A stretch of DNA of 64,000 bases. Source: Paracoccaceae bacterium. GTDB taxonomy: Bacteria; Pseudomonadota; Alphaproteobacteria; Rhodobacterales; Rhodobacteraceae. The DNA lies in the NCBI GenBank assembly GCA_021648225.1, contig JAKITE010000002.1:5391-69390 (forward strand), read 5' to 3'. The position numbers and the translations under genes were made by a program. The notes beneath the pieces are model-generated. The model ran no database searches. It had not been told where the DNA came from and saw nothing but the letters and a program-made list of their open reading frames with translations. This document shows positions 11,707-60,833 of the stretch, in pieces; position 1 is the first letter of the stretch, and each line of letters starts with the position of its first letter.

Positions 11707-13677
11707 TTATTGCGCCCCTCGGGTAAACACAAACCACGTTATTATTGCACCAACCCCGATGATCATCGCGAAAGCATAGGTAAACACGTATCCCGACTGC
11801 CAACGATTGGCCAGCCGCGTCAGCCACGGAATAATCCCCATAGCCAAACCATTCAAAGCCCCGTCAATCACCACGCCATCAACTTTTTTCCAAAGAAAAG
11901 TGCCAAGACGTTTGGACGGATTAACAATCACCAGATCGATCAGTTCGTCGAAATACCATTTATTGAGCAGAAATTGATAAAGCCCGGGGTTGCGCTTGGC
12001 CAAAGCTTTGGGCGCTTCGGGATTGCGGATATAGAAATAATACGCAGCCAAAAAGCCGGATAGCATGGCGACAAACGGCGATACCTTGACCCATTTTGGC
12101 ACATAATGCGCATCATGAATAACGGTATTGGTTTCATGATTGACATAAACCGCCTCGCCAAACCATGCGGTCACGTTGTCGCCAAAAAATTCCGGATACC
12201 AGAGCATACCGGCAAACGCAGACCCGACCGCCAGCACCAGCAAAGGGATCAGCATGACAAGCGGGCTTTCATGGGCGTGATCATGGGTGTGCTTATCACC
12301 CCTCGGGTCGCCATAAAATGTCATAAACATCAACCGCCAGCTATAAAAACTGGTCATCGCCGCTGAAAACACCAGCATATAAAACGCATAGCTGCCCGCT
12401 GCGGTGCCCGCCGCAAATGTGGTCTCGATAATTGCATCCTTGGAAAGGAACCCTGCAAAACCAATGGTGGTTAGCGGAATGCCAACGCCGGTGATGGCCA
12501 GAGTGCCGATCATCATCGCCCAAAATGTTTTGGGGATTTTATGACGCAAACCGCCGTAATTACGCATATCCTGTTCGTGATGCATGGCGGTAATCACCGA
12601 ACCGGCCCCGAGAAACAACATCGCCTTGAAAAACGCATGGGTGAATAGATGGAATATCGCCACCTGATAGGCACCAACACCGGCAGCGGCAAACATATAG
12701 CCAAGCTGCGACATGGTTGAATAGGCAATCACCCGTTTGATATCGTTTTGAACCAGCCCGATTGTGGCCGCCACAAAGGCCGTGGTTGCGCCAACATAGG
12801 TCACAAAAGCCAGCGTTCCGGGGGCATATTCAAACACCGGCGACATGCGCACCACAAGGAAAACCCCTGCGGTAACCATCGTGGCCGCATGGATCAGCGC
12901 CGAAACAGGGGTCGGGCCTTCCATCGCGTCGGGCAGCCATGTGTGCAGAAACAACTGCGCCGATTTACCCATCGCACCAATAAACAGCAACAATGTCAGA
13001 ATGCCGGCCGCATTCATGGTCATGCCCAGAAATTCCATTTTAACCTGTGACAGTTCATGTCCGGCGGCAAAAATATCATCAAAATTGATACTATCGGTCA
13101 TCAGGAACAAGCCGAATATACCCAGAGCAAAACCAAAATCACCAACCCGATTGACAATAAATGCCTTCATCGCGGCGGCATTGGCCGAGGGTTTGCGGTA
13201 ATAAAACCCGATCAAAAGATACGAGGCAACGCCCACGCCTTCCCAGCCAAAAAACATTTGCAGCAGGTTGTCAGAGGTCACCAGCATCAGCATCGAGAAG
13301 GTGAAAAACGACAGATACGCAAAGAAACGCGGCTCATAGCTTTCGCCTTTGCGCCATTGCGGATCGTCTTTCATATAACCAATCGAATACAGATGCACGA
13401 GCGCGGAAACCGTGGTCACCACCACCAGCATTATTTGCGTCAGACGGTCCATGCGGATCGCCCAGTCAACGCTTAACGAACCGCTTTCCAGCCAGCGCAT
13501 AATGGTGATGGTTTCAGCCACATCATATTGACCGAAAAACACGATCCACGACAAAAATGCCGCCAGAAACAACAGCCCCGTAGAGACAAACTTGGCGTTT
13601 TGCTCGCCAATGATACGCCAGCCAAAACCGGCAATAAGCGCGCCAACCAGCGGAGCAAAGAGGATAATTACCGGCAT
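11707..13677 (-). CDS. nuoL: NADH-quinone oxidoreductase subunit L
   Basis: 656 aa with the [22 protein letters not shown] motif and the long C-terminal extension typical of NuoL. Confidence 0.9.
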
Positions 13678-24809: not shown

Positions 24810-25699
<890 letters not shown>

Positions 25700-26148
25700 A
25701 TTAGCATTCCTTCACAGTCTTGCGCCCAAAATGTTGCAGCGCATAAGAGTCGCAACAGGTTTACCCCCCGCCACTGGGCAGGTCAACCGAACAAGCGTGC
25801 AATTACACATATTCACCTTTCCTGAATTGACCTGAATCAAGCTGGAATTATGGAAAATTAGCGAGGCAAGGTTAACAAGCTGACAAAGCCGGTTTTATCT
25901 TGGCATTCGCGTGATCAAGCCCCGAACGCCACCTTTGCAAATCCGGCATTTATTTCAATTCCCGACAGGTATTCATGTGCCGGATAAGTAAAACAATGGG
26001 TTTTTGACCGAAAACCGGCTAAAATTGTAACATTCATAAAGCAACCGTTATCTCACCGGCTTGTGAATAGCAGTTGATTGGAACTCTGTTTAGCAATTGT
26101 AACGTCCACTGTGACAATGTTTCAATATACCAAAAAGGGAAATAAAAA

Positions 26149-26457
26149 ATGTCTAACACTATTGTAAAAAGCCTTGTAATCGCGTCTTCGGTTGCGGCTG
26201 CTGTTGCCGCAAACACCGGCACGGTTGCTGCGCAAGCTTCGGAAAAATGCTATGGCATTGCGTTGGCTGGCGAAAACGACTGCGCGGCAGGCCCCGGCAC
26301 CACTTGTGCGGGCAGCTCAACCGTTGATTATCAGGGCAATGCCTGGTCGATGGTGCCTGCGGGCACCTGCGAAACCACCAAGGTTGAAGGTATGGATTCC
26401 ATGGGCAACGAACGCATGGGTTCGCTGGAAGCGCTGGAACGCGATGTTCCTGCATAA
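26149..26457 (+). CDS. bufA: DUF2282-type RiPP precursor (bufferin-like)
   Basis: 102 aa with a Sec signal peptide ending VAAQA/SE. The core is EKC-x10-C-x7-C-x20-C and contains [13 protein letters not shown] and DYQGNAW. An AAAGGGAAA RBS lies upstream. Confidence 0.8.
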
Positions 26458-26526
26458 TTTCAGGCCTGTATAAAATAACCGGGCCTGCCATTGGCGGGCC
26501 CGATCCCTTGCTTTGAAAGACCGAAA

Positions 26527-27378
26527 ATGAACAATTATGCCACCCAAAGCAGTATTCCCGCCCTGGCAGGCGTGGGCTATAAACCCCAGCACCTTGACGA
26601 TATCAATGCGGATGCGGGTAATGTAAAATGGCTTGAAATCCATGCCGAGAACTATATGGCCGATGGCGGGCCACCCATCGCCCAGCTGCGCCATTTACGC
26701 GACAGGTTTCCGGTTTCCTGCCACGGCGTCGGCCTGTCCATCGGTGGCGAACTGCCATTAAACAAAGACCATCTGTTGCGGCTGAAAAAGCTGATCGACT
26801 GGCTGCAACCCGGGTTGTTTTCCGAACATCTGGCATGGTCCACCCATGAGGCCGGTTTTTTGAATGACCTGTTGCCCTTGCCCTATAATACCGCAACCGT
26901 AAAACGGGTAGCAGACCATATTGACGAAGTGCAGGAATTTCTGGGCCGGCAAATGTTGCTGGAAAATCCGTCGGCTTATGTGGCGTTCAAATCGACAACC
27001 ATGGATGAAATCGATTTTTTGAACGAAATTGTCGCGCGCACCGGCTGCGGATTGCTGCTGGATGTCAACAATGTGTTTGTTTCAAGCACCAACCAGCAAT
27101 ACTCCCCCGAGGATTATATCGACCGTTTTCCGGTTGAACATATCGGCGAACTGCACCTTGGCGGCCATGCCGAAGATACGGATGATTACGGTGAAAAACT
27201 GTTGATCGACAGCCATGACAACCCCGTGGTTGATCCGGTCTGGAAATTGTTTGACCGGCTTTTGGCGCGCTCCGGCCCCAAACCCGCCTTGATAGAATGG
27301 GATAACGACATCCCCGACTGGCCGGTGCTGGAAAACGAAGCCGCACGGGCAACCGCAGCATTGGGTCGCGCAGCATGA
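26527..27378 (+). CDS. bufB: DUF692 / MNIO family (multinuclear non-haem iron oxidative) RiPP maturase
   Basis: About 283 aa from the ATG at 26527 (the ORF track starts at 26491). It carries the VGYKPQH N-terminus, EIHAENY, LHLGGH and IEWDND motifs typical of DUF692 TIM-barrel proteins. Confidence 0.8.
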   Translation: MNNYATQSSIPALAGVGYKPQHLDDINADAGNVKWLEIHAENYMADGGPPIAQLRHLRDRFPVSCHGVGLSIGGELPLNKDHLLRLKKLIDWLQPGLFSEHLAWSTHEAGFLNDLLPLPYNTATVKRVADHIDEVQEFLGRQMLLENPSAYVAFKSTTMDEIDFLNEIVARTGCGLLLDVNNVFVSSTNQQYSPEDYIDRFPVEHIGELHLGGHAEDTDDYGEKLLIDSHDNPVVDPVWKLFDRLLARSGPKPALIEWDNDIPDWPVLENEAARATAALGRAA

Positions 27379-28124
27379 CCCTGTCCGATTTTGCCCCTGC
27401 ATTATTAAACGTCAAACTTCCGGTTCCCGATGATCTGGTTGGCCCCAAAGGCCGCCCCGCAGGTCGGCGGTTTAATGTGTATCGCAATAATGTAGTGCAT
27501 TCCCTGTCCGAGGCTTTGGCAGCGGCCTATCCGGTTATTAAAAAACTGGTTGGCGATGAATTTTTCAAAGCCATGGCCAATGTTTTTGTGCGCCAGTTTC
27601 CGCCCTCCAGCCCGATGATGTTTCAATTTGCAGCCGAATTTCCGGTGTTTCTGGAGAGCTTTCCACCGGTGGCCCACCTGCCCTATCTGCCCGATGTGGC
27701 GCGCCTTGAACGCGCAAGGCGGCAATCCTATAATGCCGCTGACGCGAACCCGATTGATGGCGCGGTTCTGGCGATTGCCAGCCCCGAACAGTTGATGGGC
27801 GCGCAGCTTGGCTTGCACCCGAGCATGCGGGTTGTGATTTCAAAATATCCAATTCTGACCATTTGGGAAAACAACAATTCCGACAGTCAAAAACCGCTGC
27901 CAGGCGGCGGGCAGGATGTTTTGATCTGCCGCCCGAAAGACACGCTCGAGATGCGAATTCTACCCAAAGGCGGTGCTGGATTTTTGCGGGCATTGTTTGA
28001 AAACAAAACCTTGGCCAAGGCCAATGAAACGGCCGAGCAAACCAACGGGTTTGACCTGACACAAAACATAAGCGGCCTGCTGGCGGCGCAATTATTAATA
28101 AAAACAACATTAAAAGGGACTTGA
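27375..28124 (+). CDS. bufC: DUF2063 partner protein of the MNIO enzyme
   Basis: 249 aa. An ATGA overlap couples it to the upstream gene. It has the FNVYRNNV and GDEFF motifs typical of DUF2063. Confidence 0.75.
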   Translation: MTLSDFAPALLNVKLPVPDDLVGPKGRPAGRRFNVYRNNVVHSLSEALAAAYPVIKKLVGDEFFKAMANVFVRQFPPSSPMMFQFAAEFPVFLESFPPVAHLPYLPDVARLERARRQSYNAADANPIDGAVLAIASPEQLMGAQLGLHPSMRVVISKYPILTIWENNNSDSQKPLPGGGQDVLICRPKDTLEMRILPKGGAGFLRALFENKTLAKANETAEQTNGFDLTQNISGLLAAQLLIKTTLKGT

Positions 28125-28126
28125 AA

Positions 28127-28663
28127 ATGCGTGCATTAATCGGATTACATAACGGGGTTTTCTCTGCGATATCAACGCTTACCGGCCCATGGCTGTTACC
28201 AACACTGATGCGGTTTACATTCGCTGCCACCTTGTTGCAATATTTCTGGAACTCGGCCCAGACCAAACTGGATGGCGGGCTGTTTTCGCTTAGCTTCGGT
28301 GCCTATGCACAGGTATTACCGCGCAAATATGAATCGCTGGGTTACGACCCGAGCCTGTTAAGCTTTTTCGACAAAGCCGTTGTTTTTGCAGGCACATATG
28401 CAGAATTTATCCTGCCTGCGCTAATTGTGATCGGCTTGTTTACGCGGCTTGCCTCGATCGGCATGATCGGCTTTATCGCGGTGCTGACCTATGTGGATAT
28501 ATACGGCCATATGGCGGATCCGGTGACCATCGGCACATGGTTTGATCGTATTCAGGATAGCCAGATCATGGATCAACGGCTGTTCTGGATTGTGGTTTTG
28601 ATCACGCTTGTTGTCAAAGGCGCGGGGCCGGTCTCGGTTGACCGGTTGATCAAGCTCAAGTGA
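28127..28663 (+). CDS. DoxX family membrane protein (fourth gene of the bufferin-type operon)
   Basis: About 178 aa with 4 TM helices. The start is either the ATG at 28127 or the TTG at 28121, which overlaps the upstream stop. Confidence 0.7.
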   Translation: MRALIGLHNGVFSAISTLTGPWLLPTLMRFTFAATLLQYFWNSAQTKLDGGLFSLSFGAYAQVLPRKYESLGYDPSLLSFFDKAVVFAGTYAEFILPALIVIGLFTRLASIGMIGFIAVLTYVDIYGHMADPVTIGTWFDRIQDSQIMDQRLFWIVVLITLVVKGAGPVSVDRLIKLK

Positions 28664-28684
28664 CGGTGGGTGTGGGCGCCCGCC

Positions 28685-29125
28685 CTACAGCTCGTCACTT
28701 AACAACACATTGCTTTCTACCTCCCCGACCCCGGGGAGGGTCATGATACGACGCCGCAATATACGTTCAAAATCCGACAGATCCCGTGCCACGACTTTTA
28801 GACGATAATCATATACCCCCAGCACATGTTGCACCAGTTGCACCTCGGGAATGGCGCAAACCGCCCGTTCAAAATCCTCCAGCCCGACACGGCCTTTGGC
28901 GGCCAGTTTCACCCCCAGATAAACCACCACATCAAAGCCCAGCTTAAACCGGTCCAGCACGATCTGCCGCCCAAGGATAATCCCCGCATCCTCCAACCGT
29001 TTGACCCGCCGCCAAGCACTGGGCTGGGTCAAACCGGTCAACTTGCCAAGCGCAGCCGCGCTTAACCCGCCATCCTGTTGCAATGCCCGCAAAATCGCGC
29101 GGTCGGTATCATCCAGATCAATCAT
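28685..29125 (-). CDS. Lrp/AsnC family transcriptional regulator
   Basis: 146 aa with an N-terminal HTH (DDTDRAILRALQQDGGLS) and a C-terminal RAM-type domain. Confidence 0.85.
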   Translation of the reverse strand: MIDLDDTDRAILRALQQDGGLSAAALGKLTGLTQPSAWRRVKRLEDAGIILGRQIVLDRFKLGFDVVVYLGVKLAAKGRVGLEDFERAVCAIPEVQLVQHVLGVYDYRLKVVARDLSDFERILRRRIMTLPGVGEVESNVLLSDEL

Positions 29126-29580
29126 ATCGGCAATGCCTCGCTGTTTTTGACCTCGGCCACCAGCATCAGCGATTCGACCTCCGACATATGGGGCAGCGCC
29201 AATATACGTTCACGGTAAATCTGCTGATAATGGGCCAGATCACGGGCCCGCACATCCATGCGAATATCCACCCGCCCAAGCAGGGTTTGAATGGCGTGGA
29301 CCTCGGGGATTTGACGCGCGGCGGCGATAAATTCATCAAAAGCATTGCTGCGGGTTTTATCCAGCGTTATGCGTAAAAACACCTCTACCGCCAACCCGAG
29401 CGCACGGTGATTGATAATAACCGCCCGCCCTTTGATCACGCCGGCAGATTCAAGCCGCGCCAGCCGCCGCGCACAAGGGCTGACCGACATGCCGGCTTGT
29501 AATGCCAGCTCTGCCATGGGCATCACAGCATTGCCTTGCAAAAGCCGTAAAATCTTTCGGTCTGTGCTGTCAATTTGCAT
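29122..29580 (-). CDS. Lrp/AsnC family transcriptional regulator
   Basis: 152 aa with the DSTDRKILRLLQGNAVMP HTH. It overlaps the downstream paralogue by 4 nt and is divergent from ilvC. Confidence 0.85.
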   Translation of the reverse strand: MQIDSTDRKILRLLQGNAVMPMAELALQAGMSVSPCARRLARLESAGVIKGRAVIINHRALGLAVEVFLRITLDKTRSNAFDEFIAAARQIPEVHAIQTLLGRVDIRMDVRARDLAHYQQIYRERILALPHMSEVESLMLVAEVKNSEALPI

Positions 29581-29648
29581 GATTTACCTGTATTTTTGAT
29601 CGAACGCGCATGAAACACCCCTTTACCAGCAAAATCCCCAAAAAGTAA

Positions 29649-30731
<1,083 letters not shown>

Positions 30732-34076: not shown

Positions 34077-34871
34077 ATGATTGATCTATTAACCTTTGGC
34101 AACCTTGCCAATCTGGTCATTTTATTATTTCTTCAGGCCGTGCTTGGCTTTGACAATCTTTTATATATCTCGATTGAATCGCGCCGCGCACCGGCTGAAC
34201 ATCAGGCAAAGGTTCGCAAATGGGGCATCATCATTGCGGTAGCGCTGCGGGTTGTGCTGCTGTTTGTGATGATCCAGCTGATTGAAACCCTGAAAGCGCC
34301 GTTCTTTTCGCTAAATATCTCCGGCATTGTCGAGGGCAATTTCAATTTTGCCACGCTGGTATTTTTGTTTGGCGGGGTGTTTATTATGTATACCGCCGTT
34401 AAGGAAATCAGCCATATGCTGGCGATTGAACATCTGGAAGAAGGTGTCGCAAAACGCAAACATAAATCGGCATTTCAGGTTATCATGATGATTGTATTCA
34501 TGAATTTAATCTTCAGCTTTGATTCCGTGCTGTCAGCACTGGCCATTACCGATGTGTTTCCGGTGCTGGCCACAGCCATTTTACTGTCGGGGCTGGCAAT
34601 GGTTTTGCTGGCCGACGGTGTTGCCGAATTTATCAAGAAAAACCGTATGTATGAGGTGCTGGGCCTGTTTATCCTGCTGATCGTTGGCATTGTATTGCTG
34701 GGCGAGGCTGGCCATGAGGGGCAGATCAAACTGTTTGGTTTCGCGGTAGAACCGATTAGCAAAACCACCTTCTATTTCTCGATCGCGGTGTTGGTCGTGG
34801 TGGAAATCATCCAGTCAAAATACAAGAAAAAGCTGGCCTATGAACGGGCACGCCAACAAGCAAAACAATAA
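34077..34871 (+). CDS. TerC family integral membrane protein
   Basis: 264 aa, polytopic, with an N-terminal LQAVLGFDNLLYISIE motif typical of TerC/Alx/YkoY-type proteins. Confidence 0.75.
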   Translation: MIDLLTFGNLANLVILLFLQAVLGFDNLLYISIESRRAPAEHQAKVRKWGIIIAVALRVVLLFVMIQLIETLKAPFFSLNISGIVEGNFNFATLVFLFGGVFIMYTAVKEISHMLAIEHLEEGVAKRKHKSAFQVIMMIVFMNLIFSFDSVLSALAITDVFPVLATAILLSGLAMVLLADGVAEFIKKNRMYEVLGLFILLIVGIVLLGEAGHEGQIKLFGFAVEPISKTTFYFSIAVLVVVEIIQSKYKKKLAYERARQQAKQ

Positions 34872-34945
34872 GGTAGGCTCTGGCTTTTAAGTAAAACCGC
34901 ACTATATTAACAATTATCTGCGCATTCAGCGCCAAGGAAAAATAC

Positions 34946-35038
34946 ATGTCGGGTAAAACCCTGCAATTGATTGCATATCTTGTGCTGGTCAGCCTTATCT
35001 GGGTGGTTGCCGCCGGTTCTTACGGGTGGATTTCCTGA
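34946..35038 (+). CDS. 30-codon hydrophobic micro-ORF translationally coupled to the XpaC-like gene
   Basis: It encodes MSGKTLQLIAYLVLVSLIWVVAAGSYGWIS. An AAGGA RBS lies about 7 nt upstream of the ATG, and the TGA stop shares its A with the next ATG (TGATG). It is too short to appear in the ORF track. Confidence 0.45.
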   Translation: MSGKTLQLIAYLVLVSLIWVVAAGSYGWIS

Positions 35039-35958
35039 TGGCAGTCAAACGTTTCAGGGGGGCCAACAGCCCCGATGCAAAACCGGATGAAGCGGTTATA
35101 ATGGCGGATGCGCCGGTTAATCCATTGGCCGGCAAATCCATCAAGGTCAGCAATTTTCGCGCAAATCTGTTGTTTTTTGTGCCCCTGCCCTTGCTGTTGA
35201 ACGGGTTTTCCAAAATGGCGGATGCCGCGCCGCTTTCGATGCTGGCATCTTTTGGCGCCTTTGCCTTGCTTGTTCTTTCCGCATGGCTACTGCGCGAAGG
35301 GTTAAAGGCCGAAGCCGCCTATAATGCCCGCAAGGTTGCGCGCCCGCCGATGCCACGAAAAATCATCGCCGCCGATCTTTCCGGTATCGGGGTTGGCATG
35401 GCCGCGTGGCTTAGCTGGGGCCAGCCGCTCTGGAGCGCGGTGGTGTTTGGCGTGGTTACGGTTGTGGCTTTTCTGGCGGCTTTCGGGCTGGACCCGTTAC
35501 GCAAAAAAGGCATGGAAGGCTTTAACGAATTTGAAGCCAACCGCGTTGCCAAGGCGGTTGGCAAAGCCGAAAAACTGCTGGCCCAAATCAGCGACGCCGC
35601 GGCGCGTATTGGTGACCGGCGCATCGAATCCAAGGTGAATGATCTGACCGCTGCGGCGGCTGAAATGCTGCGGGTTGTTGAAGACGACCCACGGGATTTG
35701 ACATCGGCACGTAAATTCATGACGGTATATTTAATGGGTGCGCGCGATGCGACGGTAAAATTTGCCGATGTTTATTCGCGATCCCAAAATCAGGAAGCAC
35801 GATCGGAATACGAGACTTTATTAAAAGACCTGCAAACAAGTTTTGAAGGTAAAAAACAAGCATTATTGCAAGATGACCACACCGATCTGGATGTGGAGAT
35901 CGAAGTCTTGCGCGAAAGATTACAACGCGAAGGGCATTTGCCCAAAGAGGGAGAATAA
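35038..35958 (+). CDS. XpaC-like (5-bromo-4-chloroindolyl phosphate hydrolysis family) membrane protein
   Basis: About 306 aa: four TM helices followed by a helical C-terminal domain with the DPRDLTSARKFMTVYL motif. It lies immediately upstream of telA, as in the Bacillus xpaC-yaaN pair. Confidence 0.65.
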   Translation: MAVKRFRGANSPDAKPDEAVIMADAPVNPLAGKSIKVSNFRANLLFFVPLPLLLNGFSKMADAAPLSMLASFGAFALLVLSAWLLREGLKAEAAYNARKVARPPMPRKIIAADLSGIGVGMAAWLSWGQPLWSAVVFGVVTVVAFLAAFGLDPLRKKGMEGFNEFEANRVAKAVGKAEKLLAQISDAAARIGDRRIESKVNDLTAAAAEMLRVVEDDPRDLTSARKFMTVYLMGARDATVKFADVYSRSQNQEARSEYETLLKDLQTSFEGKKQALLQDDHTDLDVEIEVLRERLQREGHLPKEGE

Positions 35959-35959
35959 C

Positions 35960-37147
35960 ATGACCGAGGATATCAGAGCCAAAGCAGAAAGCACCTTGAA
36001 AGAGGTTGAAAAAGTCACCTCGGTGCTGCTGCCGGAACCAAAAGGCGAATTGATCGTGATTGATCAGGCCAGCGCTGCCGAAAAAGCACAAATCGACACT
36101 GCCATTGGCGAGCTGGATATGGGAGACACCCAGTCGATCATCCGGTTCGGGTCATCCGCACAGGCCGAATTGCAGGTAATTTCGCAAGAAATGCTGGCCG
36201 GTGTGCGCAATCAGGATGCTGGCCCTGCGGGCGATGCGCTGCGCGAAATGGTGACCTCCATTCGTGGTTTCTCGGTTGATGAACTGAACCCGAACCGCAC
36301 CCAAAGCTGGTGGGATAAATTGCTGGGCCGCGCCAAACCGATTGCCATGTTCATGGCCAAATACGAAACCGTGCAAGGCCAGATTGATAAAATTACCGAA
36401 GAATTATTGCAGCACGAACATATCTTGCTTAAAGACATCAAATCGCTTGATAAGCTGTATGAAAAAACCCTTGAATTTTACGACCAACTGGCGATTTATA
36501 TCGCGGCTGGCGAAGAAAAAATCAAAAGCCTTGATGATGTGGATATTCCGGCAAAACAAAAAGCCGTGGATGACGCGCCTGAGGATGACAAGGTTATTAT
36601 CGCACAGGAACTGCGTGATCTGCGCGCCGCACGCGATGATCTGGAACGCCGGGTGCATGATTTGAAACTGACCCGTCAGGTCACCATGCAAAGCCTGCCC
36701 AGCATTCGTCTGGTGCAGGAAAACGATAAATCTCTGGTTACCAAGATCAATTCCACCATGGTCAACACTGTGCCGCTTTGGGAAACCCAACTGGCGCAGG
36801 CTGTCACCATCCATCGTTCCCGCGAGGCTGCAAAAGTAGTGCGCGAGGCCAATGATCTGACCAATGAATTGCTGACTGCCAATGCGGAAAACCTGAAAAT
36901 CGCCAATAAGGAAATCCGCACCGAAATGGAACGCGGCGTGTTTGACATCGAGGCTATCAAAAAGGCCAATGCGGCCCTGATTGAAACCATCGAGGACAGC
37001 CTGCGCATCGCTGACGAGGGCAAAGCCAAACGTCTTGAGGCCGAAAAAGAGCTGGACATTATGGAGCGCGAGCTGACCAACACGCTGGCAGCGGCCAAAG
37101 CCAAAGATACGGCCTCTAGCCATAATATCGGCAGCAGCGTCGAATAG
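35960..37147 (+). CDS. telA: TelA / toxic-anion-resistance family protein
   Basis: 395 aa from the ATG at 35960 after a GAGGGAGA RBS (the ORF track starts at 35843). It is helical and coiled-coil rich, with an IIRFGSSAQAELQVISQEML N-terminal region. Confidence 0.8.
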   Translation: MTEDIRAKAESTLKEVEKVTSVLLPEPKGELIVIDQASAAEKAQIDTAIGELDMGDTQSIIRFGSSAQAELQVISQEMLAGVRNQDAGPAGDALREMVTSIRGFSVDELNPNRTQSWWDKLLGRAKPIAMFMAKYETVQGQIDKITEELLQHEHILLKDIKSLDKLYEKTLEFYDQLAIYIAAGEEKIKSLDDVDIPAKQKAVDDAPEDDKVIIAQELRDLRAARDDLERRVHDLKLTRQVTMQSLPSIRLVQENDKSLVTKINSTMVNTVPLWETQLAQAVTIHRSREAAKVVREANDLTNELLTANAENLKIANKEIRTEMERGVFDIEAIKKANAALIETIEDSLRIADEGKAKRLEAEKELDIMERELTNTLAAAKAKDTASSHNIGSSVE

Positions 37148-37169
37148 GAGACAAACATGGGTATTTTCG
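37143..37169 (+). repeat. Direct repeat copy 1 (telA stop + RBS + first 13 nt of the SPFH-type coding sequence)
   Basis: AATAGGAGACAAACATGGGTATTTTCG matches 26 of 27 positions at 38027-38053. Confidence 0.9.
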
Positions 37170-37189
37170 GGCTTAGGAGACGTAATTGA
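37157..37189 (+). other. 10-codon stub (MGIFGLRRRN*) duplicating the first four codons of the SPFH gene
   Basis: The start codon and codons 1-4 (MGIF) equal those of the gene at 38041. The reading frame then diverges and stops 1 nt before the GTG of the next ORF. Confidence 0.6.
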
Positions 37190-37190
37190 A

Positions 37191-37847
37191 GTGTTTATAG
37201 ATTTGTTGAAACCTGAAACCTTTGATTTCGTCGCTAAGTTTTTTCTGGCCGGATACATAGTCATTGTCATACGATCCCGATTTGTAGTCGGAGAGCGACC
37301 TAAGGCAGCCCATGTAGTCGCTGAAGCCGTAATTCTTAGCCTAATTAACCAATTAATATTTCAAACCATAAGTCAGATTTTCATATGGATCGTCCCTACT
37401 GAATACAGCCAGTGGGTTTGGATGCGCTTCCCATTTTATATTGAAGTTGTATTTCTCCCATTATTGTGGGGTTTACTGATTGGAGCAAACTTATCCAAAG
37501 GCTGGAAACATGCGGTTTTCCGGCGGCTCTCGATGCCTATCGTTAGCCCAATTCAAAGAGCTCACGATTTTGCTTTTGGTTTTAACAGAGAGCCCTGCCT
37601 TGTAATAGTTACATATGAAGATGAAACGATAGTGAGGGGCCATTTTGGCACCGAATCCTTAGCCGCCAGTGATCCCGAACGTAGCGATTTGTACTTGGAA
37701 CGCCTATATACTGTAGATAACACTGACCAATGGATAGAAACAATGCCGGGCAGGTCGGCTTTGTTAAGTTTGAATAATGTGCGTTCGATCGAATTTTTAG
37801 ATCAGATCACAAATGATACTAATTCAGAAGGAAAAGGAAATGCCTAA
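37191..37847 (+). CDS. Hypothetical membrane protein (cargo of the AT-rich insertion)
   Basis: 218 aa with a GTG start 10 nt after an AGGAGA. There are about 4 N-terminal TM helices and a soluble C-terminal domain of about 100 aa. Nucleotide composition is clearly AT-richer than the flanks by eye. The architecture reminds me of DUF6338-type proteins, but this is unverified. Confidence 0.55.
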   Translation: MFIDLLKPETFDFVAKFFLAGYIVIVIRSRFVVGERPKAAHVVAEAVILSLINQLIFQTISQIFIWIVPTEYSQWVWMRFPFYIEVVFLPLLWGLLIGANLSKGWKHAVFRRLSMPIVSPIQRAHDFAFGFNREPCLVIVTYEDETIVRGHFGTESLAASDPERSDLYLERLYTVDNTDQWIETMPGRSALLSLNNVRSIEFLDQITNDTNSEGKGNA

Positions 37848-38031: not shown

Positions 38032-38053
38032 GAGACAAACATGGGAATTTTCG
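38027..38053 (+). repeat. Direct repeat copy 2
   Basis: AATAGGAGACAAACATGGGAATTTTCG. It contains the functional RBS and start of the SPFH gene. Confidence 0.9.
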
Positions 38054-39141
38054 ATTTTTTAACCGGCCAGTTTATAGATGTCATCCACCATACGGATGAC
38101 ACGCAAGATACGCTGGTCTGGCGGTTTGAACGTCAGGGCCATGAAATTAAATATGGCGCGAAATTAACGGTTCGCGAAGGCCAAGCGGCGGTTTTCATCC
38201 ATGAGGGCCAGATGGCGGATGTATTTTCGCCCGGGCTTTATATGTTGGAAACCAACAATATGCCGATCATGACCAGCCTGCAACACTGGGATCACGGTTT
38301 TCAAAGCCCGTTCAAGTCGGAAATATATTATGTCAACACCACCCGTTTTCAAGACCTGAAATGGGGCACCAAAAATCCGATCATGTGCCGCGACCCGGAA
38401 TTTGGCGTGGTGCGTATTCGCGCTTTTGGCACCTATACCATTCGGGTTTCTGACCCTGCGGTGTTTATGCGTGAAATTGTTGGCACCGATGGTGAATTCA
38501 CCACCGATGAAATCTCCAGCCAGATCCGCAATATCATTGTGTCGCGTTTTACCAATGCGGTGGCAAAATCCGGCATTCCGGTGCTGGATATGGCCGCAAA
38601 TATGGACGAGCTGAGCAATATTATTGCTGATCTTGTCTCGCCACAACTGGCGGAATACGGCCTTGAAATGCCGATGCTGATGATCGAAAACATCTCGCTG
38701 CCCGCAGCGGTAGAAGAGGCCATGGACAAACGCACCTCGATGGGTGTGGTGGGCGATTTGAACAAATATACTCAATTCTCCGCAGCCGAAGCCATGACCG
38801 CAGCCGCCTCCAACCCCGGTGGTTCGGGCATGGGTGACGGGCTTGGCATGGGTATGGGCATGGCGATGGCGCAAAACATGGCTGGTATGGGCGCTGCTGC
38901 ACCCGCCGCTGCCGCGCCGCCGCCTCCGCCGGCTGAAAAGGTCTGGCATCTTGCTGAAAACGGCAAAACCACCGGTCCGTTTTCAAAAGCCGCCCTTGGC
39001 CGCATGGCCAGCGATGGCAGCCTGAAACGCGGTTCAACCGTTTGGACTGCGGGTCAGGATGGCTGGATAGCAGCGGGTGATATTGATGAATTGGCACAGC
39101 TGTTTACGGTTATGCCGCCGCCTCCACCACCAGCTGGCTAG
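38041..39141 (+). CDS. SPFH/band-7-like protein (YdjI / 'virion core protein' type) with Gly/Met/Ala/Pro low-complexity linker and C-terminal GYF_2-like domain
   Basis: 366 aa with an MGIFDFLTGQFIDVI N-terminus and the WRFERQG...LTVREGQAAVF motif. The linker reads GGSGMGDGLGMGMGMAMAQNMAGMGAAAPAAAAPPPPP. The C-terminal part reads WHLAENGKTTGPFS...VWTAGQDGW. Confidence 0.65.
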   Translation: MGIFDFLTGQFIDVIHHTDDTQDTLVWRFERQGHEIKYGAKLTVREGQAAVFIHEGQMADVFSPGLYMLETNNMPIMTSLQHWDHGFQSPFKSEIYYVNTTRFQDLKWGTKNPIMCRDPEFGVVRIRAFGTYTIRVSDPAVFMREIVGTDGEFTTDEISSQIRNIIVSRFTNAVAKSGIPVLDMAANMDELSNIIADLVSPQLAEYGLEMPMLMIENISLPAAVEEAMDKRTSMGVVGDLNKYTQFSAAEAMTAAASNPGGSGMGDGLGMGMGMAMAQNMAGMGAAAPAAAAPPPPPAEKVWHLAENGKTTGPFSKAALGRMASDGSLKRGSTVWTAGQDGWIAAGDIDELAQLFTVMPPPPPPAG

Positions 39142-39147
39142 GCTTGT

Positions 39148-40248
39148 ATGGTTGAAACACCCTCTGAAGAAGAACACCGCTTTCCCTGTGGGGATTGCGG
39201 CTCTGACATGCGTTTTGACGCAGCTAAATCTTTGTTGGTATGCGATTTTTGTGGCAATACCGAACCCGTTGCAGCGCGCGAAAGCGCCAATTGGCAAATC
39301 ACCGAGCAGGATTTCAACAAAGCCCTGCGCGATGAATTGCCCGAATCGGAAATGGAAACCACACGGGTTGCCAAATGCGAAAATTGCGGCGCTCAGGTAG
39401 ATTTTGCCAAGGATAGCCATGCCACCGAATGCCCGTTTTGCGCCAGCCCGATCGTGCTGGATACCGGCACCAACAAACATATCAAACCCAAGGGTGTTTT
39501 GCCTTTTTCTGTGGCTGAAAAAGCCGCGCGCGGGGCCATGACCGACTGGTTGGGCAAATTGTGGTTTGCCCCTAATAACCTGAAAGAATACGCCCGAAAA
39601 GACCGCAAAATGCAGGGGGTCTATGTGCCCTACTGGACCTATGACAGCCAATCGGAATCCGATTATCGCGGCCAGCGCGGTGATGCCTATTATGTGACAC
39701 GAACCGTGGTGGTAAACGGCAAAACCGAAACAAGACGCGAACGCAAAATCCGCTGGCGGCCGGCAGCGGGCCATATCTCAAAGTTTTTTGACGATATTCT
39801 GATTCTGGCCTCAAAAAGCCTGCCGAAAAAATACACCGACCGGCTGGCGCCTTGGGATCTGTCGGAACTGGAGGCCTATAGCCCCGATTATCTGGCAGGC
39901 TTTAACGCCGAGGCCTATTCGGTGCAGCTGGCCGACGGGTTTATCGAGGCCAAAATCCTGATGGAGCGTGAAATACGCCAGCTGGTGCGCCACGATATTG
40001 GCGGTGATGAACAACGCATTTCACGGCTTGATACCCGGCTAAGCGACATCACCTATAAGCACGTGCTGCTGCCGGTCTGGCTGGCGGCCTATAAATATAA
40101 CGGTAAAACCTTTCGCTTTGTGGTCAATGGCCGCACCGGCAAGGTGCAAGGCGAACGCCCTTGGTCCAAAATCAAAATCGCGCTGGCGGTTGTGGCTGGC
40201 CTGATTGTTGCTGGTGCAGCGGTTTATTTTATTCAGGCCAATCAATAA
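39148..40248 (+). CDS. Double zinc-ribbon protein with C-terminal TM anchor (YdjG-like)
   Basis: 366 aa with two CxxC-x15-16-CxxC ribbons (CGDCGSDMRFDAAKSLLVCDFCG and CENCGAQVDFAKDSHATECPFCAS) and a C-terminal helix (IALAVVAGLIVAGAAVYFI). Confidence 0.6.
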   Translation: MVETPSEEEHRFPCGDCGSDMRFDAAKSLLVCDFCGNTEPVAARESANWQITEQDFNKALRDELPESEMETTRVAKCENCGAQVDFAKDSHATECPFCASPIVLDTGTNKHIKPKGVLPFSVAEKAARGAMTDWLGKLWFAPNNLKEYARKDRKMQGVYVPYWTYDSQSESDYRGQRGDAYYVTRTVVVNGKTETRRERKIRWRPAAGHISKFFDDILILASKSLPKKYTDRLAPWDLSELEAYSPDYLAGFNAEAYSVQLADGFIEAKILMEREIRQLVRHDIGGDEQRISRLDTRLSDITYKHVLLPVWLAAYKYNGKTFRFVVNGRTGKVQGERPWSKIKIALAVVAGLIVAGAAVYFIQANQ

Positions 40249-47693: not shown

Positions 47694-48833
47694 ATGCATC
47701 CCGTCAATATTTCACCCCGGTCAAGCAGCCTGCCAGAGCGCATCGGGCCATTCAAAGGCAAGCGCCTTCCGGTGGTTTTAATTCTGTTGACCCTTGCCAT
47801 TTTCCCCGGCGAAATCGGCGCATTGACCCGCGGCCTGATGACCGACGCCTATGTGCAGGTCAGCGCCTTTGTCGCAACAACACTGTTGATATTTTACGGA
47901 GTTGAACGCATTTTCAAGTTTGAGCTTGGCGCTGCGCTCAAAAATTCCAAACATTTCCAAATTCCGCTTTCTGCCCTGTTGGGCACCACGCCCGGCTGTG
48001 GTGGCGCGGTGGTTGTGGTTGCTGCCTATTCATCGGGTAATGTCAGCTTTGGCGCGGTGGTTGCCGCATTAACCGCCACCATGGGCGATGCGGCATTTCT
48101 GTTAATTGCAGTGCGCCCCGATGTGGCGATTGTTATTTTACCGCTTTCTTTTACGGTCGGTATCGCCACCGGTTTTATTGTTGATAAGTTCAACAAGACC
48201 GATTATCGCGGCACGGCTTCTGCAAAATGCGAATTTGCACCCCTGATCGGGCGATTGCGCGCAAAAGATATGCTTTTTGTGGCTTTGGTTATCCCCGGGC
48301 TGGCCATGGGCATCACTCAAATCATGCAATTTGATCTTGAGCTAACCTGGGGCATATGGCTGCCGGTTGTTGGCCTGACAGGCACGGCAATTGGTCTTTG
48401 GATGTGGTCGACATCCACCATTCAGGCCATGACAAACGTCAATGACACCCCCCTGACCCGCGCTGCCGAGGAAACCAGTTTTATCGCAATCTGGGTGATC
48501 GGGGCTTATCTGGCCTATGATTATATCGTGCTTTTTTCCGGCCTTGATCTTGCGGCACTGTTTTCATCCATTGCGCCGCTATTGCCCTTGATGGGCATCA
48601 TCATTGGCCTGATTCCGGGCTGCGGCCCTCAGGTTCTGGTAACAACCATGTATGTTAACGGGCTGATCCCGTTTTCAGCCCTGCTTGGCAACGCGATATC
48701 AAATGACGGCGACGCGTTGTTTCCGGCGATTGCCCTGAACCCCAAAGCCGCTGTTATGGCCACGCTTTACTCCACGGTTCCGGCATTTTTTCTGGCCTAC
48801 GGGTTTTATTTCTTTGCGCCCAACTTCATGTAA
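47694..48833 (+). CDS. ~10-TM putative metal(loid) exporter (ArsP_2 / 'putative manganese transporter'-like)
   Basis: 379 aa, polytopic. The motifs [12 protein letters not shown] and [11 protein letters not shown] are duplicated across the two halves, and [12 protein letters not shown] is also present. The family assignment is from memory only. Confidence 0.45.
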
Positions 48834-57616: not shown

Positions 57617-59215
57617 CTAAACATCCTCTAGAATATGGTCAGCAGCCTTTTCGCCAACCATAATCGACGGTGCATTCAGATTGCCATTGGTTATGCGCGG
57701 AAAGATCGAGCTATCCGCAAGGCGCAGCCGCTCAACCCCGATCACTTTGCAGGCCGGATCAACCACCGCCATCGGGTCATCGCGCTGGCCCATGCGGGCT
57801 GTACCACACGGGTGAAACGCGCTTTCCGCATGTTGGCGGATAAACCCGTCCAGCTCTGAATCGCTTTGCAGATATTTCCCGGGCTGGATTTCCGTGCCTG
57901 CAAATTCCGCAAAGGCTTTTTGGCCAAAAATCTGACGCGTTAGCCGGATGCAATGGCGAAACTCGGCCCAGTCATCATCGTGGCTCATGTAATTGAACCG
58001 AATGTTTGGCGCGACATTCGGGTCGCTACTGGCCAGCGTCACCGCACCACGGGATTTGGAGCGCATCGGCCCGACATGGGCCTGAAACCCGTGGCCCTCA
58101 GCGGCGATTTTACCGTCATAACGCACCGCAATCGGGATGAAATGAAACTGGATATCGGGGTAATCCGCTGCACCAGATCGTAAAAATGCAGCACTTTCAA
58201 ACTGGTTAGAGGTGCCAAGACCGGTTTTTTGAAACAGCCATTCAGCACCGATACGCGCCTTTGAAATCAGGTTCCAATAGCGATACAGCGTGATCGGTTT
58301 CAGGCTGGCCTGCTGGATATACAGCTCCAGATGGTCTTGCAGATTTTGCCCCACACCACCCCGATCAGCCAGCACCGGAATGCCGTGTTTGGCCAGATGT
58401 GCCGCTGGGCCAATGCCCGACAACATCAGGATTTTGGGCGAGTTTATCGAGGATGCGGAGATAACCACTTCGCGCCTAGCATGAATAATTTCAATGCGGC
58501 CTTTGCGTTCAACTTCCACCCCGATTGCGCTACCGTTTTCAATCAAAACCTTGCGAACAAAACAGCGTAACAGCTTGCAATTACGGCGTTTTAGCGCAGG
58601 CCGGATATAGGCATTGGCGGTGGACCAACGCCGGCCTTTCCAAACCGTCTGCTCCATCGGACCAAAGCCCTCTTGGTGTTCACCGTTATAATCCTGCGTA
58701 AGCGGAAAGCCCATTTCGGCCCCAGCTTTCACAAAAGCAGAATGCAACGGGTTGTCGCGCGGGCCTCGGGTGACATGCACAGGGCCGTCATTACCGCGCC
58801 AATCCGATTGGCCGCCATGCCATGTTTCCATACGCTTGAAATAGGGCAAAACCGACGCATAATCCCAGCCGGTCGCGCCCATTCTGGCCCAATGGTCATA
58901 ATCGCCAGCATTGCCGCGCACATAAACCATGCCGTTAATACTGCTGGACCCGCCAACAACCTTGCCACGCGGGGTAACCAACCGCCTGCCCCCCAAGTGC
59001 GGTTCGGGTTGGGTTTTGAATCCCCAGTCATAGCGTTTCATGTTCATCGGATAAGAAAGCGCCGCTGGCATCTGGATAAACGGCCCCAGATCAGAGCCGC
59101 CATATTCCAGCACCAAAACCGAATATTTACCGCTTTCGCCAAGCCGATAGGCCAGCGCCGCACCAGCAGAACCGGACCCGATGATAACAAAATCGGCGCT
59201 TTTCGTATTGGTCAT
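57617..59215 (-). CDS. betA: Choline dehydrogenase (GMC oxidoreductase)
   Basis: 532 aa from the ATG at 59215, which overlaps the betI stop (ATGA). It has the [21 protein letters not shown] motif and GMC signatures ([23 protein letters not shown]). Confidence 0.88.
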
Positions 59216-59790
59216 GCCACGATGCTCAACCGCCAATACCGGTTGATAATCCCGATCATTTCATCCCGTTGCAAAGCATGGCCCTGCAAGGCGTGACGAA
59301 TATAAAACCCGTCGATCATGGCCCCGACCGCTTTGGCCGTTTCATCTGCCCTGCCCGGTCCGGTCAGCTTTTTCAGATCATACACCAGATTGGAATGTAG
59401 CCGCTTTGTATACACTCGCAACAACCGCGCCGCCCGAACTGAGCTTTGGGCCTGCACATAAAAACTAAGCCATGCGGAAACCGTCGCTTTTGAAAATTGC
59501 GAATCTGCAAAACTGGCATTGATAATGGCTGCCAAACGCTGTTCGGGGCTGTGCGCCTGTTTTAATTCAGCCGCAACCGAAAGCCCGAGCTGCATCAAAA
59601 GATGCCGCATTGCCGCCAATAGCAAATCGTCTTTGCCGCCAAAATAATGATGCGCCAAAGCCGAGCTAACCCCCGCCCGTTTGGCGATTTTACCCATGGT
59701 GACATCCAGCGACCCCAAGGCCCCGATTTCAGCAATGGTTGCCCCGATCAGGGCTTTGCGGCGAATAGGCTCCATTCCGGTTTTAGGCAT
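59212..59790 (-). CDS. betI: TetR-family choline-responsive repressor BetI
   Basis: 192 aa from [23 protein letters not shown] (compare the E. coli BetI N-terminus MPKLGMQ...). It lies directly upstream of betA. Confidence 0.85.
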
Positions 59791-59810
59791 TTTATCCCCA
59801 CAGGTTTTTA

Positions 59811-59830
59811 TTAACTGACCAGTCAATCAA
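59811..59830. promoter_or_regulatory. Candidate BetI operator (imperfect inverted repeat)
   Basis: TTAACTGAC-CA-GTCAATCAA has 7 of 9 arm matches and lies 21 nt upstream of the betI start. It resembles the TTGATTGA...TCAATCAA-type BetI boxes I recall. Confidence 0.45.
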
Positions 59831-60119: not shown

Positions 60120-60833
60120 TCACCAGCCAGCCAGAAATTCATTCCAGTCACGGCGTGCAAAACTTACACCGGAACCATATTTTTTGTTAAGATAAACCCC
60201 GAAACCCCGATGATTGTCATTATCAGAAAACTGCGAAACTTTCACCCCCAGGGCAAGCCGGTTTTCAAACCGGTATTCAGCACCAACAACGGTTAGCACA
60301 CCGGCAGTATCGCCAGAAAAACTGACCAAAGCCGCATTCAGGGACAAGCCGTTTTCCATGGTGTATTCTACCGCCCCGCCCAGACCATCAAATGCATACC
60401 CAACGTCTTGAACCCCCTCTTCACGCACCCAGAACAGCTCTGCCGAAACAGGCACTGCATCAAAATCATAGCGGGCCTCTAGCCCGTAATTATTATAAAT
60501 CGAGTTTTCGCCTGCATCGATCCAGTCTTCTGTAACCAAAAACGCCCCCACCCTGAGGTTATCCGAAATCCGGTAAATTCCATGCAGCCCGAATGTCGGT
60601 GCAAAACCGTCCGCATCATATTCAGATATCGAACCATCAATCTGCACCGAAAAATCACCAAACCCCAATTCCACAGAACCGGAAAAAGACCGGGCGACCC
60701 AATCTTGCAAATCATCGCTATTGGTAACATATTTATACTGAATATCCGCGCCTAGAAATTCCTGCGCCGATACTTTGGTTGCAATCTGGGTTGCAGCAAA
60801 TGCCAAAACCATTGCTATTATTCGAGTTTTCAT
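60120..60833 (-). CDS. Outer-membrane beta-barrel (porin-family) protein
   Basis: 237 aa with a signal peptide (MKTRIIAMVLAFAATQIATKVSA/QE), alternating amphipathic beta-strand pattern, Gly/Asp-rich turns and an aromatic C-terminus (...FLAGW). Confidence 0.7.
   Translation of the reverse strand: MKTRIIAMVLAFAATQIATKVSAQEFLGADIQYKYVTNSDDLQDWVARSFSGSVELGFGDFSVQIDGSISEYDADGFAPTFGLHGIYRISDNLRVGAFLVTEDWIDAGENSIYNNYGLEARYDFDAVPVSAELFWVREEGVQDVGYAFDGLGGAVEYTMENGLSLNAALVSFSGDTAGVLTVVGAEYRFENRLALGVKVSQFSDNDNHRGFGVYLNKKYGSGVSFARRDWNEFLAGW

Follow-up and report, generated by a model that had tools for sequence, protein, structure and literature searches.

An operon of four genes at positions 26149–28663 of a 64,000-nt stretch of DNA from an uncultured marine member of the Rhodobacteraceae (the window, whose positions serve as coordinates throughout) is, with high confidence, a canonical operon of the buf1 type, bufABCD, for the biosynthesis of a bufferin (captophorin). 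The function and the chemistry of bufferins have been established experimentally (PMC11626156), and the 5-thiooxazole assignment, once disputed for related products, has been re-confirmed and extended (PMC13097082; bioRxiv 10.64898/2026.06.05.730506). The locus had been singled out earlier from the DNA letters as a cluster for a peptide that is made on ribosomes and modified after translation (RiPP), of the bufferin type. That observation is confirmed and its interpretation is supported, as all of the sequence-level tests which the original prediction named as able to refute it were run and passed.

The gene content, order and coupling can be read directly. Four open reading frames (ORFs) lie in the same direction on the plus strand, at 26149–26457 (102 aa), 26491–27378, 27375–28124 (249 aa) and 28121–28663, all of them where the original prediction had placed them. 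The ATGA coupling that it had proposed between the second and the third gene was located as an overlap at 27375–27378. The start of bufB is most likely ATG 26527 (283 aa) rather than TTG 26491, since, in the long ORF, the Pfam domain does not start before residue 26, a separate gene call on an identical public contig yields 283 aa, and TTG 26491 falls within a 10-bp hairpin. With this start, the gap between bufA and bufB is 69 nt. The most likely start of bufD is ATG 28127, which is preceded by a Shine-Dalgarno-like AAGGGA, so that bufD begins 2 nt past the bufC stop. A similar Shine-Dalgarno-like sequence, AGGGA, stands 10 nt ahead of the start of bufA. The antisense ORFs within the cluster gave no Pfam match. 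A scan of 25300–29700 against Rfam at E ≤ 1 returned zero matches and, thus, no known riboswitch or leader in this region.

Relatives of the operon were collected by a scan of species-representative genomes, which gave 80 Rhodobacterales loci (labelled L003–L082). The order bufA-bufB-bufC-bufD was found in every Rhodobacterales locus covering the region (80 loci), with a DoxX homologue at the fourth position in 76 of the 80. The four genes also occur on an E. coli IncFIA plasmid (L083, 1603–4973) and on the Azotobacter chroococcum plasmid pAcX50e (L084, 4896–9350). In Azotobacter they are followed by genes for an extracytoplasmic function (ECF) sigma factor and a zf-HC2 anti-sigma factor and by msrP, and on the E. 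coli plasmid a TetR/AcrR gene stands ahead of them; the regulators of bufABCD have evidently been swapped between lineages. Both plasmids are mobilisable or conjugative.

The precursor encoded by the first gene had been assigned to DUF2282, and the profile search bears this out: BufA matched PF10048 over residues 32–79 and scored 86 bits (cut-off 22.4, E 1.7e-24). The protein collection contains more than 7,958 homologues. Of those with names, the nearest come from Rhodobacteraceae/Paracoccaceae, and several carry the NCBI name 'BufA1 family periplasmic bufferin-type metallophore'. A comparison of BufA with PDB sequences gave no meaningful match. The cysteine pattern that had been noticed, C-x10-C-x7-C-x20-C, is formed by residues 34, 45, 53 and 74, encoded at 26248–26250 (CysI), 26281–26283 (CysII), 26305–26307 (CysIII) and 26368–26370 (CysIV), and all four residues are invariant in alignments of 45 and of 81 sequences. 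Bufferin 1 precursors are recognized by four conserved cysteines within 80–120 residues (PMC11626156, PMC12452194), and BufA, with its four conserved cysteines in 102 residues, is of this kind. In addition, W66 lies 13 residues past CysIII (C53), and M68 follows two residues on.

BufA is predicted to carry a signal peptide at residues 1–30 (26149–26238), with cleavage between AQA and SE, which leaves a core of 72 aa at 26239–26454 with a calculated average mass of about 7351 Da. A heuristic check found Lys7, a hydrophobic stretch at residues 6–21 with its core at 8–21 (Kyte-Doolittle values up to 2.0) and the series A-Q-A-S at residues 28–31, with the cut before the serine. A structural model of BufA has a helix at residues 4–22. 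The only hydrophobic stretch of the protein is thus N-terminal and ends in the A-Q-A that precedes the serine, which agrees with the Sec signal peptide that had been read in the precursor.

A tail of about 27 residues after the last cysteine had been pointed out in this precursor. The tail is present and was counted at 28 residues; it is not peculiar to this locus, as it is conserved across the Rhodobacterales with the motif R-x-G-S-L-E-x-L-x-R-D-[LIV]-P (R89 to P101 of BufA). Within this motif, R89, G91, R98 and D99 are invariant in the 45-sequence alignment. The E. coli-plasmid and Azotobacter precursors have a related tail of 20–25 residues with a G-x-L-E-A-[LF] core. Homologues from Burkholderia, Ralstonia and Legionella align just to about residue 80 of BufA, so the plasmid Burkholderia/Ralstonia precursors are without a tail of the Rhodobacterales type.

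The second gene encodes a DUF692 enzyme, as predicted. BufB matched PF05114 (MbnB_TglH_ChrH, formerly DUF692) with 346 bits (E 1.3e-103), and it scored 373.5 bits on the NCBIfam equivalog NF050167 (MNIO_BufB, 'MNIO family bufferin maturase'), for which the cut-off is 310. It stayed below the cut-offs of the sister equivalogs, with 244.6 vs 360 for HvfB and 56.5 vs 325 for MbnB, and likewise for ApyH and ChrH. Among PDB sequences, it matched 3bww, TglH and MbnB. The iron ligands were checked by alignment with the solved MNIOs 3bww, TglH (8hci) and MbnB (7dz9 and 7tcr). The crystallographic ligands of MbnB are His54, His90, Glu133, Asp163, Asn166, His192, Asp208, His210 and Glu239 (PMC9060507), and BufB keeps all nine in the same order, as H66, H101, E146, D179, N182, H210, D228, H230 and E257. 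An enzyme of this superfamily might instead make oxazolone/thioamide pairs, as in methanobactin, rather than 5-thiooxazoles. The two modifications are equal in mass, and oxazolin, a related MNIO product, was first assigned in this way (PMC11252979). However, two groups have revised the assignment of oxazolin to 5-thiooxazole (PMC13097082; bioRxiv 10.64898/2026.06.05.730506), and the wide difference between the BufB and MbnB scores given above also argues for the thiooxazole chemistry, which makes a methanobactin-like product very improbable here.

The third gene had been read as encoding a DUF2063 protein, and residues 5–93 of BufC matched PF09836 above the gathering score (85.8 bits, cut-off 27.2). 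No match was obtained when BufC was compared with PDB sequences, either as a single sequence or as a 30-sequence profile. An AlphaFold2 (AF2) model based on 56 homologues reached a predicted local distance difference test score (pLDDT) of 91.8 and a predicted template modelling score (pTM) of 0.87. When this model was compared with the PDB using Foldseek, the sole significant matches were TglI (8hi7_A/8hci_A, E ~5e-6), taken from the TglHI complex, and NGO1945 (3dee, E 1.8e-4), and the model aligns to TglI and 3dee over 226–236 columns. In the same search, stand-alone RRE proteins (TbiB1, a lasso-peptide B1 protein) were non-significant, with E ~3. The structures of TglI and NGO1945 are the references that define the MNIO partner proteins (PME), of which the type 1 DUF2063-RRE fusions are typically 250–260 aa long (PMC12452194); BufC, with 249 aa, fits this size.

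Database labels tell another story about two of these proteins, in which the DUF2282 protein is an integral membrane protein, the DUF2063 protein is a DNA-binding transcription factor and there is no RiPP pathway. Pfam still describes PF10048 as a 'predicted integral membrane protein' and PF09836 as a 'putative DNA-binding domain'. Moreover, a GenBank protein that is 100% identical to BufC, on a 73.5-kb contig of a metagenome-assembled genome named "Rhodobacteraceae bacterium" (P0121), is called 'DNA-binding domain-containing protein'. These labels are almost certainly wrong: the sole hydrophobic stretch of BufA is its N-terminal signal sequence, the modelled fold of BufC resembles the peptide-chaperone partners of MNIO enzymes, and the biochemistry of RiPP maturation on homologues already contradicts them (PMC11626156).

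The fourth gene encodes the DoxX-family membrane protein that had been proposed. BufD matched Pfam DoxX (PF07681) with 29 bits at a cut-off of 23.6, the weakest of the four family matches, and the assignment is supported by the homologues that hold the same position in the related loci. Proteins annotated as 'DoxX family protein' occupy the matching position on both the E. coli and the Azotobacter plasmid. The similarity of BufD to HvfX is weak (31.6 bits, cut-off 80). Hydrophobic segments were seen at about residues 84–126 and 145–171. A DoxX gene is frequent in the bufferin 1 family and is not essential to it.

The mechanism proposed for the locus is carried over by homology from the buf1 operon of Caulobacter vibrioides (PMC11626156). 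BufA would be produced as a precursor of 102 aa. In the cytoplasm, the iron-dependent oxidase BufB would use O2 to convert Cys45 and Cys53 (CysII and CysIII) into 5-thiooxazole heterocycles, while the DUF2063-RRE partner BufC would hold BufB on its substrate. The peptide would then be exported by Sec, and signal peptidase would cleave it after Ala30. Cys34 and Cys74 (CysI and CysIV) are expected to form a disulfide. The resulting periplasmic mini-protein of 72 residues would chelate Cu(I)/Cu(II) through its thiooxazoles and so buffer the cell against copper excess. BufD would have an accessory role in the membrane, and the modification would not depend on it. The present sequences and models show the gene content, order and coupling, the families of the four proteins, the conserved iron ligands, the fold of the partner protein and the cysteine pattern of the precursor; chemistry, export, metal specificity and regulation are inferred.

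Five points weigh against such an assignment. Its support at this locus and in the Rhodobacterales comes entirely from the comparison of sequences and models. The residue after CysII is Ala here, where both the Caulobacter precursor (PMC11626156) and the E. coli-plasmid homologue have Lys. The AlphaFold model of BufA, made from the 45-sequence alignment, is of low confidence (pLDDT 55), which bears on the geometry of the CysI-CysIV disulfide and on the tail. The DoxX match exceeds its threshold by just 5 bits. Finally, neither a copper-responsive regulator nor a sigmaF/NrsF pair is adjacent to the operon, which leaves induction by copper conjectural.

The regulation of the operon was approached through the DNA around it. 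The original prediction held that no regulator is adjacent. This is true of sigma/anti-sigma genes, since no ECF sigma/NrsF pair flanks the operon in the window and none was found among the conserved neighbours in the 80 loci; such a pair occurs in some Buf1 clusters and does not define them. It is not true of regulators in general, since two Lrp/AsnC-family genes lie directly downstream. These are tandem, overlapping genes on the minus strand (28685–29125 and 29122–29580), convergent with bufD and divergent from ilvC. The pair is conserved only in the closest relative, L003, and nothing ties it to buf. The operon had also been described as divergent from complex I. This holds in the window; a comparison of the flanks of L003–L082 with window 25334–25699, on the side where the operon diverges from nuoA in the subclade of the window, limits the arrangement to that subclade (L003, L005, L007 and L014) and two short Logan contigs. 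The gene upstream of the operon is thrS in 62 of the 80 loci, and the genes downstream are those for an ArsC-family protein and a small membrane protein, along with thyX.

Upstream of bufA a conserved element was found at -103 to -130 from the ATG, with the consensus GTnAC ... T(G/C/A)AC-N6-GTGA-N2-3-CAC-N6-GTGA(A/G)T. Its position weight matrix (PWM) was refined by expectation-maximisation (EM) on 66 non-redundant Rhodobacterales upstream regions. When both strands of each ~10-kb locus were scored in full, the element came out on top in 67 of 78 loci. Sites in 71 of the 78 fall within one 30-nt range of positions with a median of 27.8 bits, compared with 14–15 of 78 and ~9 bits in shuffles. 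The element accompanies bufA whether thrS or nuoA is the upstream gene, and it was not found in the E. coli-plasmid or Azotobacter bufABCD loci. The copy in the window consists of GTAAC at 26027–26031 and tandem dyads at 26037–26070 (TAAAGCAACCGTTATCTCACCGGCTTGTGAATAG) and scores 20.2 bits at -112; the promoter-proximal dyad TCAC-N6-GTGA (26053–26066) is intact, and the distal dyad is degenerate. Such a tandem-dyad element is likely an operator for a regulator. It is the only part of the locus not already described, and the case for its being an operator is one of conservation. A second PWM match of ~20 bits at 11849–11882 (minus strand), within a nuoL-like coding sequence, was judged to be due to chance.

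The extended alignment of the relatives also showed a conserved TAnnnT at +55 to +60 of the element, ~20 nt downstream of it, with T-x-G-C 17–18 nt before the TAnnnT. This suggests that the dyads lie just upstream of, and overlap, a -35 box. In the window, the corresponding sigma70-type promoter is a weak candidate, made of a -35-like TAGCAG at 26068–26073 and a -10-like TAGCAA(T) at 26091–26097; it is 1 nt off and a poor match. The sigmaF promoter of Caulobacter, GTAACC-N16-CGAA (PMC3511200), does not describe this region well. The window has GTAACA-N13-CGTT and GTAACG-N16-TTCA, the spacings from AC to CGT are 13–15 or 20 nt, and the clade consensus has spacers of 15 or 20 nt. A MerR-type promoter was considered, in which T-x-AC-G and GTGAAT would stand 20 nt apart with the dyad in the middle of this spacer; it was not adopted, since GTGAAT is without the key -10 positions. 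No match could be established with the Iron-Rhodo-box/IscR box, which is described, with no consensus in the text, as a single 19-bp palindrome (PMC4618611).

In the Rhodobacterales clade, control is probably not exerted through an adjacent ECF sigma/anti-sigma pair; a factor acting on the tandem TCAC-N6-GTGA element, ~110 nt upstream of bufA, is more likely. A wider proposal can be made only tentatively, and in its entirety it is doubtful: the Rhodobacterales buf1 operons may have replaced sigmaF/NrsF control by a transcription factor that binds a tandem TCAC-N6-GTGA operator, and the precursor tail may be a functional module, e.g., a follower-type docking site for the RRE of BufC. Docking through the tail would account for a modification that does not need the signal peptide.

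The weaker copy of the element in the window (20 bits against the median of 28, with one dyad degenerate) could also mean that the cluster is silent or decaying in this organism. This is very unlikely, as none of the four ORFs is disrupted, the catalytic residues are retained, as are all of the family-invariant residues of the precursor, and near-identical copies of the cluster were found in two independent sequencing runs.

Within the operon, the spacer between bufA and bufB contains a hairpin at 26480–26502 with a 10-bp GC stem, a 3-nt loop and no U-tract (centroid -22 kcal/mol, z = -2.39). The spacers of 79 related loci have a median z of -2.85, and 80% of them have z < -2, with stem sequences that are unrelated. 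The hairpin is likely an attenuator/partial terminator or an mRNA stabiliser that sets, and raises, the ratio of precursor to enzyme. A raised precursor:enzyme ratio is common in RiPP operons. At the other end of the operon, a stem-loop without a U-tract extends over the stop codons of bufD and of the Lrp/AsnC gene convergent with it (28658–28700, minimum free energy (MFE) -23.3 kcal/mol, z = -2.45) and is possibly a bidirectional terminator. The coordinates of the features are collected in Table 1.

Table 1. Features of the bufABCD locus, with window positions and the basis of each call.
Feature	Position	Strand	Basis
bufA, BufA1/DUF2282 precursor, 102 aa	26149..26457	+	Pfam PF10048, 86 bits
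bufB, MNIO (DUF692) bufferin maturase, 283 aa	26527..27378	+	NF050167, PF05114
bufC, PME type 1 partner, 249 aa: N-terminal DUF2063 and C-terminal RRE-type domain	27375..28124	+	PF09836, AF2 model
bufD, DoxX-family membrane protein, 178 aa	28127..28663	+	Pfam DoxX, conserved position
Putative operator: GTAAC and tandem-dyad element	26027..26070	+	PWM/EM on relatives
Candidate sigma70-type promoter, weak	26068..26097	+	Extended alignment of relatives
GC-rich hairpin, bufA-bufB spacer	26480..26502	+	Folding energy, z-score
Stem-loop over bufD and Lrp/AsnC stop codons	28658..28700	.	MFE, z-score

The product could also be a thiooxazole peptide whose main role is something other than copper buffering, namely the handling of another metal (Cd, Cr, Au, Hg or Zn) or of oxidants such as hypochlorite. 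In Caulobacter, chromate and cadmium induce the operon via sigmaF (PMC3511200), the gig operons were named after induction by gold (PMC11626156), and fusions of MerC with bufferin point to roles with other metals (PMC12452194). The ECF sigma factor, zf-HC2 anti-sigma factor and MsrP of the Azotobacter locus form a set associated with oxidant stress, and the Rhodobacterales loci have their distinct, lineage-specific upstream element and usually an ArsC-family neighbour. However, every member tested so far has a copper phenotype and binds copper tightly (PMC11626156, PMC13097082), and the sequence gives no sign of a different metal. Another main role is therefore considered unlikely, and copper buffering is preferred.

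The original prediction further saw a metal-stress theme in the surroundings. The multicopper oxidase, P1B ATPase, TerC and TelA genes that it named are real; a metal island is unsupported, because these genes lie 5–33 kb off among housekeeping genes, and between them and the cluster come the nuo operon, ilvC, pyrD and genes of fatty-acid oxidation. The multicopper oxidase (62–1249) has three Cu-oxidase domains; the window starts within its gene, which truncates the N-terminus. A run of stress-associated genes at 34077–37847 encodes TerC (34077–34871), a Halogen_Hydrol/XpaC-like protein (35026–35958), TelA (35843–37147, with an overlapping start) and a DUF6338 protein (37191–37847). Genes for an SPFH/Band-7-GYF protein and for a zinc-ribbon protein come after it, at 38041–40248. 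The protein of the ArsP_2 '10TM heavy-metal exporter' family at 47694–48833 (E 1.9e-107) was absent from the earlier list. The P1B-type ATPase (61162–63246) has one HMA domain, at the N-terminus (GMDCPSC), and a CPC motif in the membrane region, and upstream of it, in divergent orientation, a 237-aa protein with a signal peptide is encoded at 60120–60833 (minus strand). The minus strand at 57617–59826 encodes a GMC oxidoreductase (Pfam) and, after it, a protein of 204 aa that is TetR/BetI-like by eye, an arrangement that resembles the betA-betI pair for choline oxidation.

Described in 2024, the family was the subject of a survey in 2025 (PMC12452194) and was unified under the name "captophorins" in 2026. 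It comprises more than 24,000 MNIO-partner loci and is present in about half of the reference genomes of Pseudomonadota (PMC13097082). Conceptually, the locus brings nothing new to the study of bufferins/captophorins, for which curated NCBI models already exist. Its main value is accurate annotation, as the GenBank label on the protein identical to BufC and the Pfam descriptions of PF10048 and PF09836 are outdated. Two small leads bear on the marine roseobacters, which are abundant in coastal waters of variable copper content. Through the conserved upstream element the regulator might be traced, and with it the signal that truly induces the operon; the conserved tail of the precursor is a candidate determinant of substrate recognition.

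The operon has the architecture that had been claimed for it, that of the buf1/gig operons, with DUF2282, MNIO, DUF2063 and DoxX genes in the order described (PMC11626156). The buf1 operon of Caulobacter vibrioides (CCNA_03363-03366), which makes bufferin 1, has the same four genes in the same order: a DUF2282 precursor with a Sec signal, four cysteines and the x7 spacing between CysII and CysIII, then an MNIO and a DUF2063-RRE partner, then DoxX. Trp44 and Met46 of Caulobacter, the former 13 residues past CysIII (position 31), match W66 and M68 past C53 (numbering of PMC11626156), and this Trp-x-Met strand has been implicated in contact with copper (PMC11626156). The matching x7 spacing and the placement of the Trp-x-Met support carrying the Caulobacter mechanism over. 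Unlike in Caulobacter, no sigF-nrsF pair stands beside the operon in the window, the N-terminus of the core is shorter (CysII at core position 15 instead of 23) and the tail is longer, with 28 residues against ~16, a figure estimated from the 68-aa core of Caulobacter. The gig operon of Cupriavidus metallidurans (Rmet_4682-4685 / RMET_RS24090-24075) is likened to the locus by its description as a four-gene DUF2282-DUF692-DUF2063-DoxX operon (PMC11626156).

More distant systems share part of this plan. Haemophilus influenzae hvfABCX, which makes oxazolin, and the fontiphorin cluster of Fontimonas (both 'captophorins') also have an MNIO, a DUF2063-RRE partner, DoxX and a precursor with a Sec signal, and their products carry 5-thiooxazoles and bind copper (PMC13097082). 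In contrast to Hvf, the precursor in the window is without EGKCG repeats, and its partners score below the Hvf cut-offs (BufB 244.6 vs 360 for HvfB, BufC 49.5 vs 142 for HvfC and BufD 31.6 vs 80 for HvfX), which makes the cluster in the window a sister subfamily and not a member of Hvf. Methanobactin biosynthesis by MbnABC shares the MNIO superfamily, identical iron ligands (PMC9060507) and a copper-chelating peptide product. The differences are larger here, as BufB reaches 56.5 bits where MbnB requires 325, and the partner is a DUF2063 protein, not MbnC. Methanobactin is a small secreted chalkophore with oxazolone/thioamide chemistry, whereas a bufferin is a periplasmic mini-protein.

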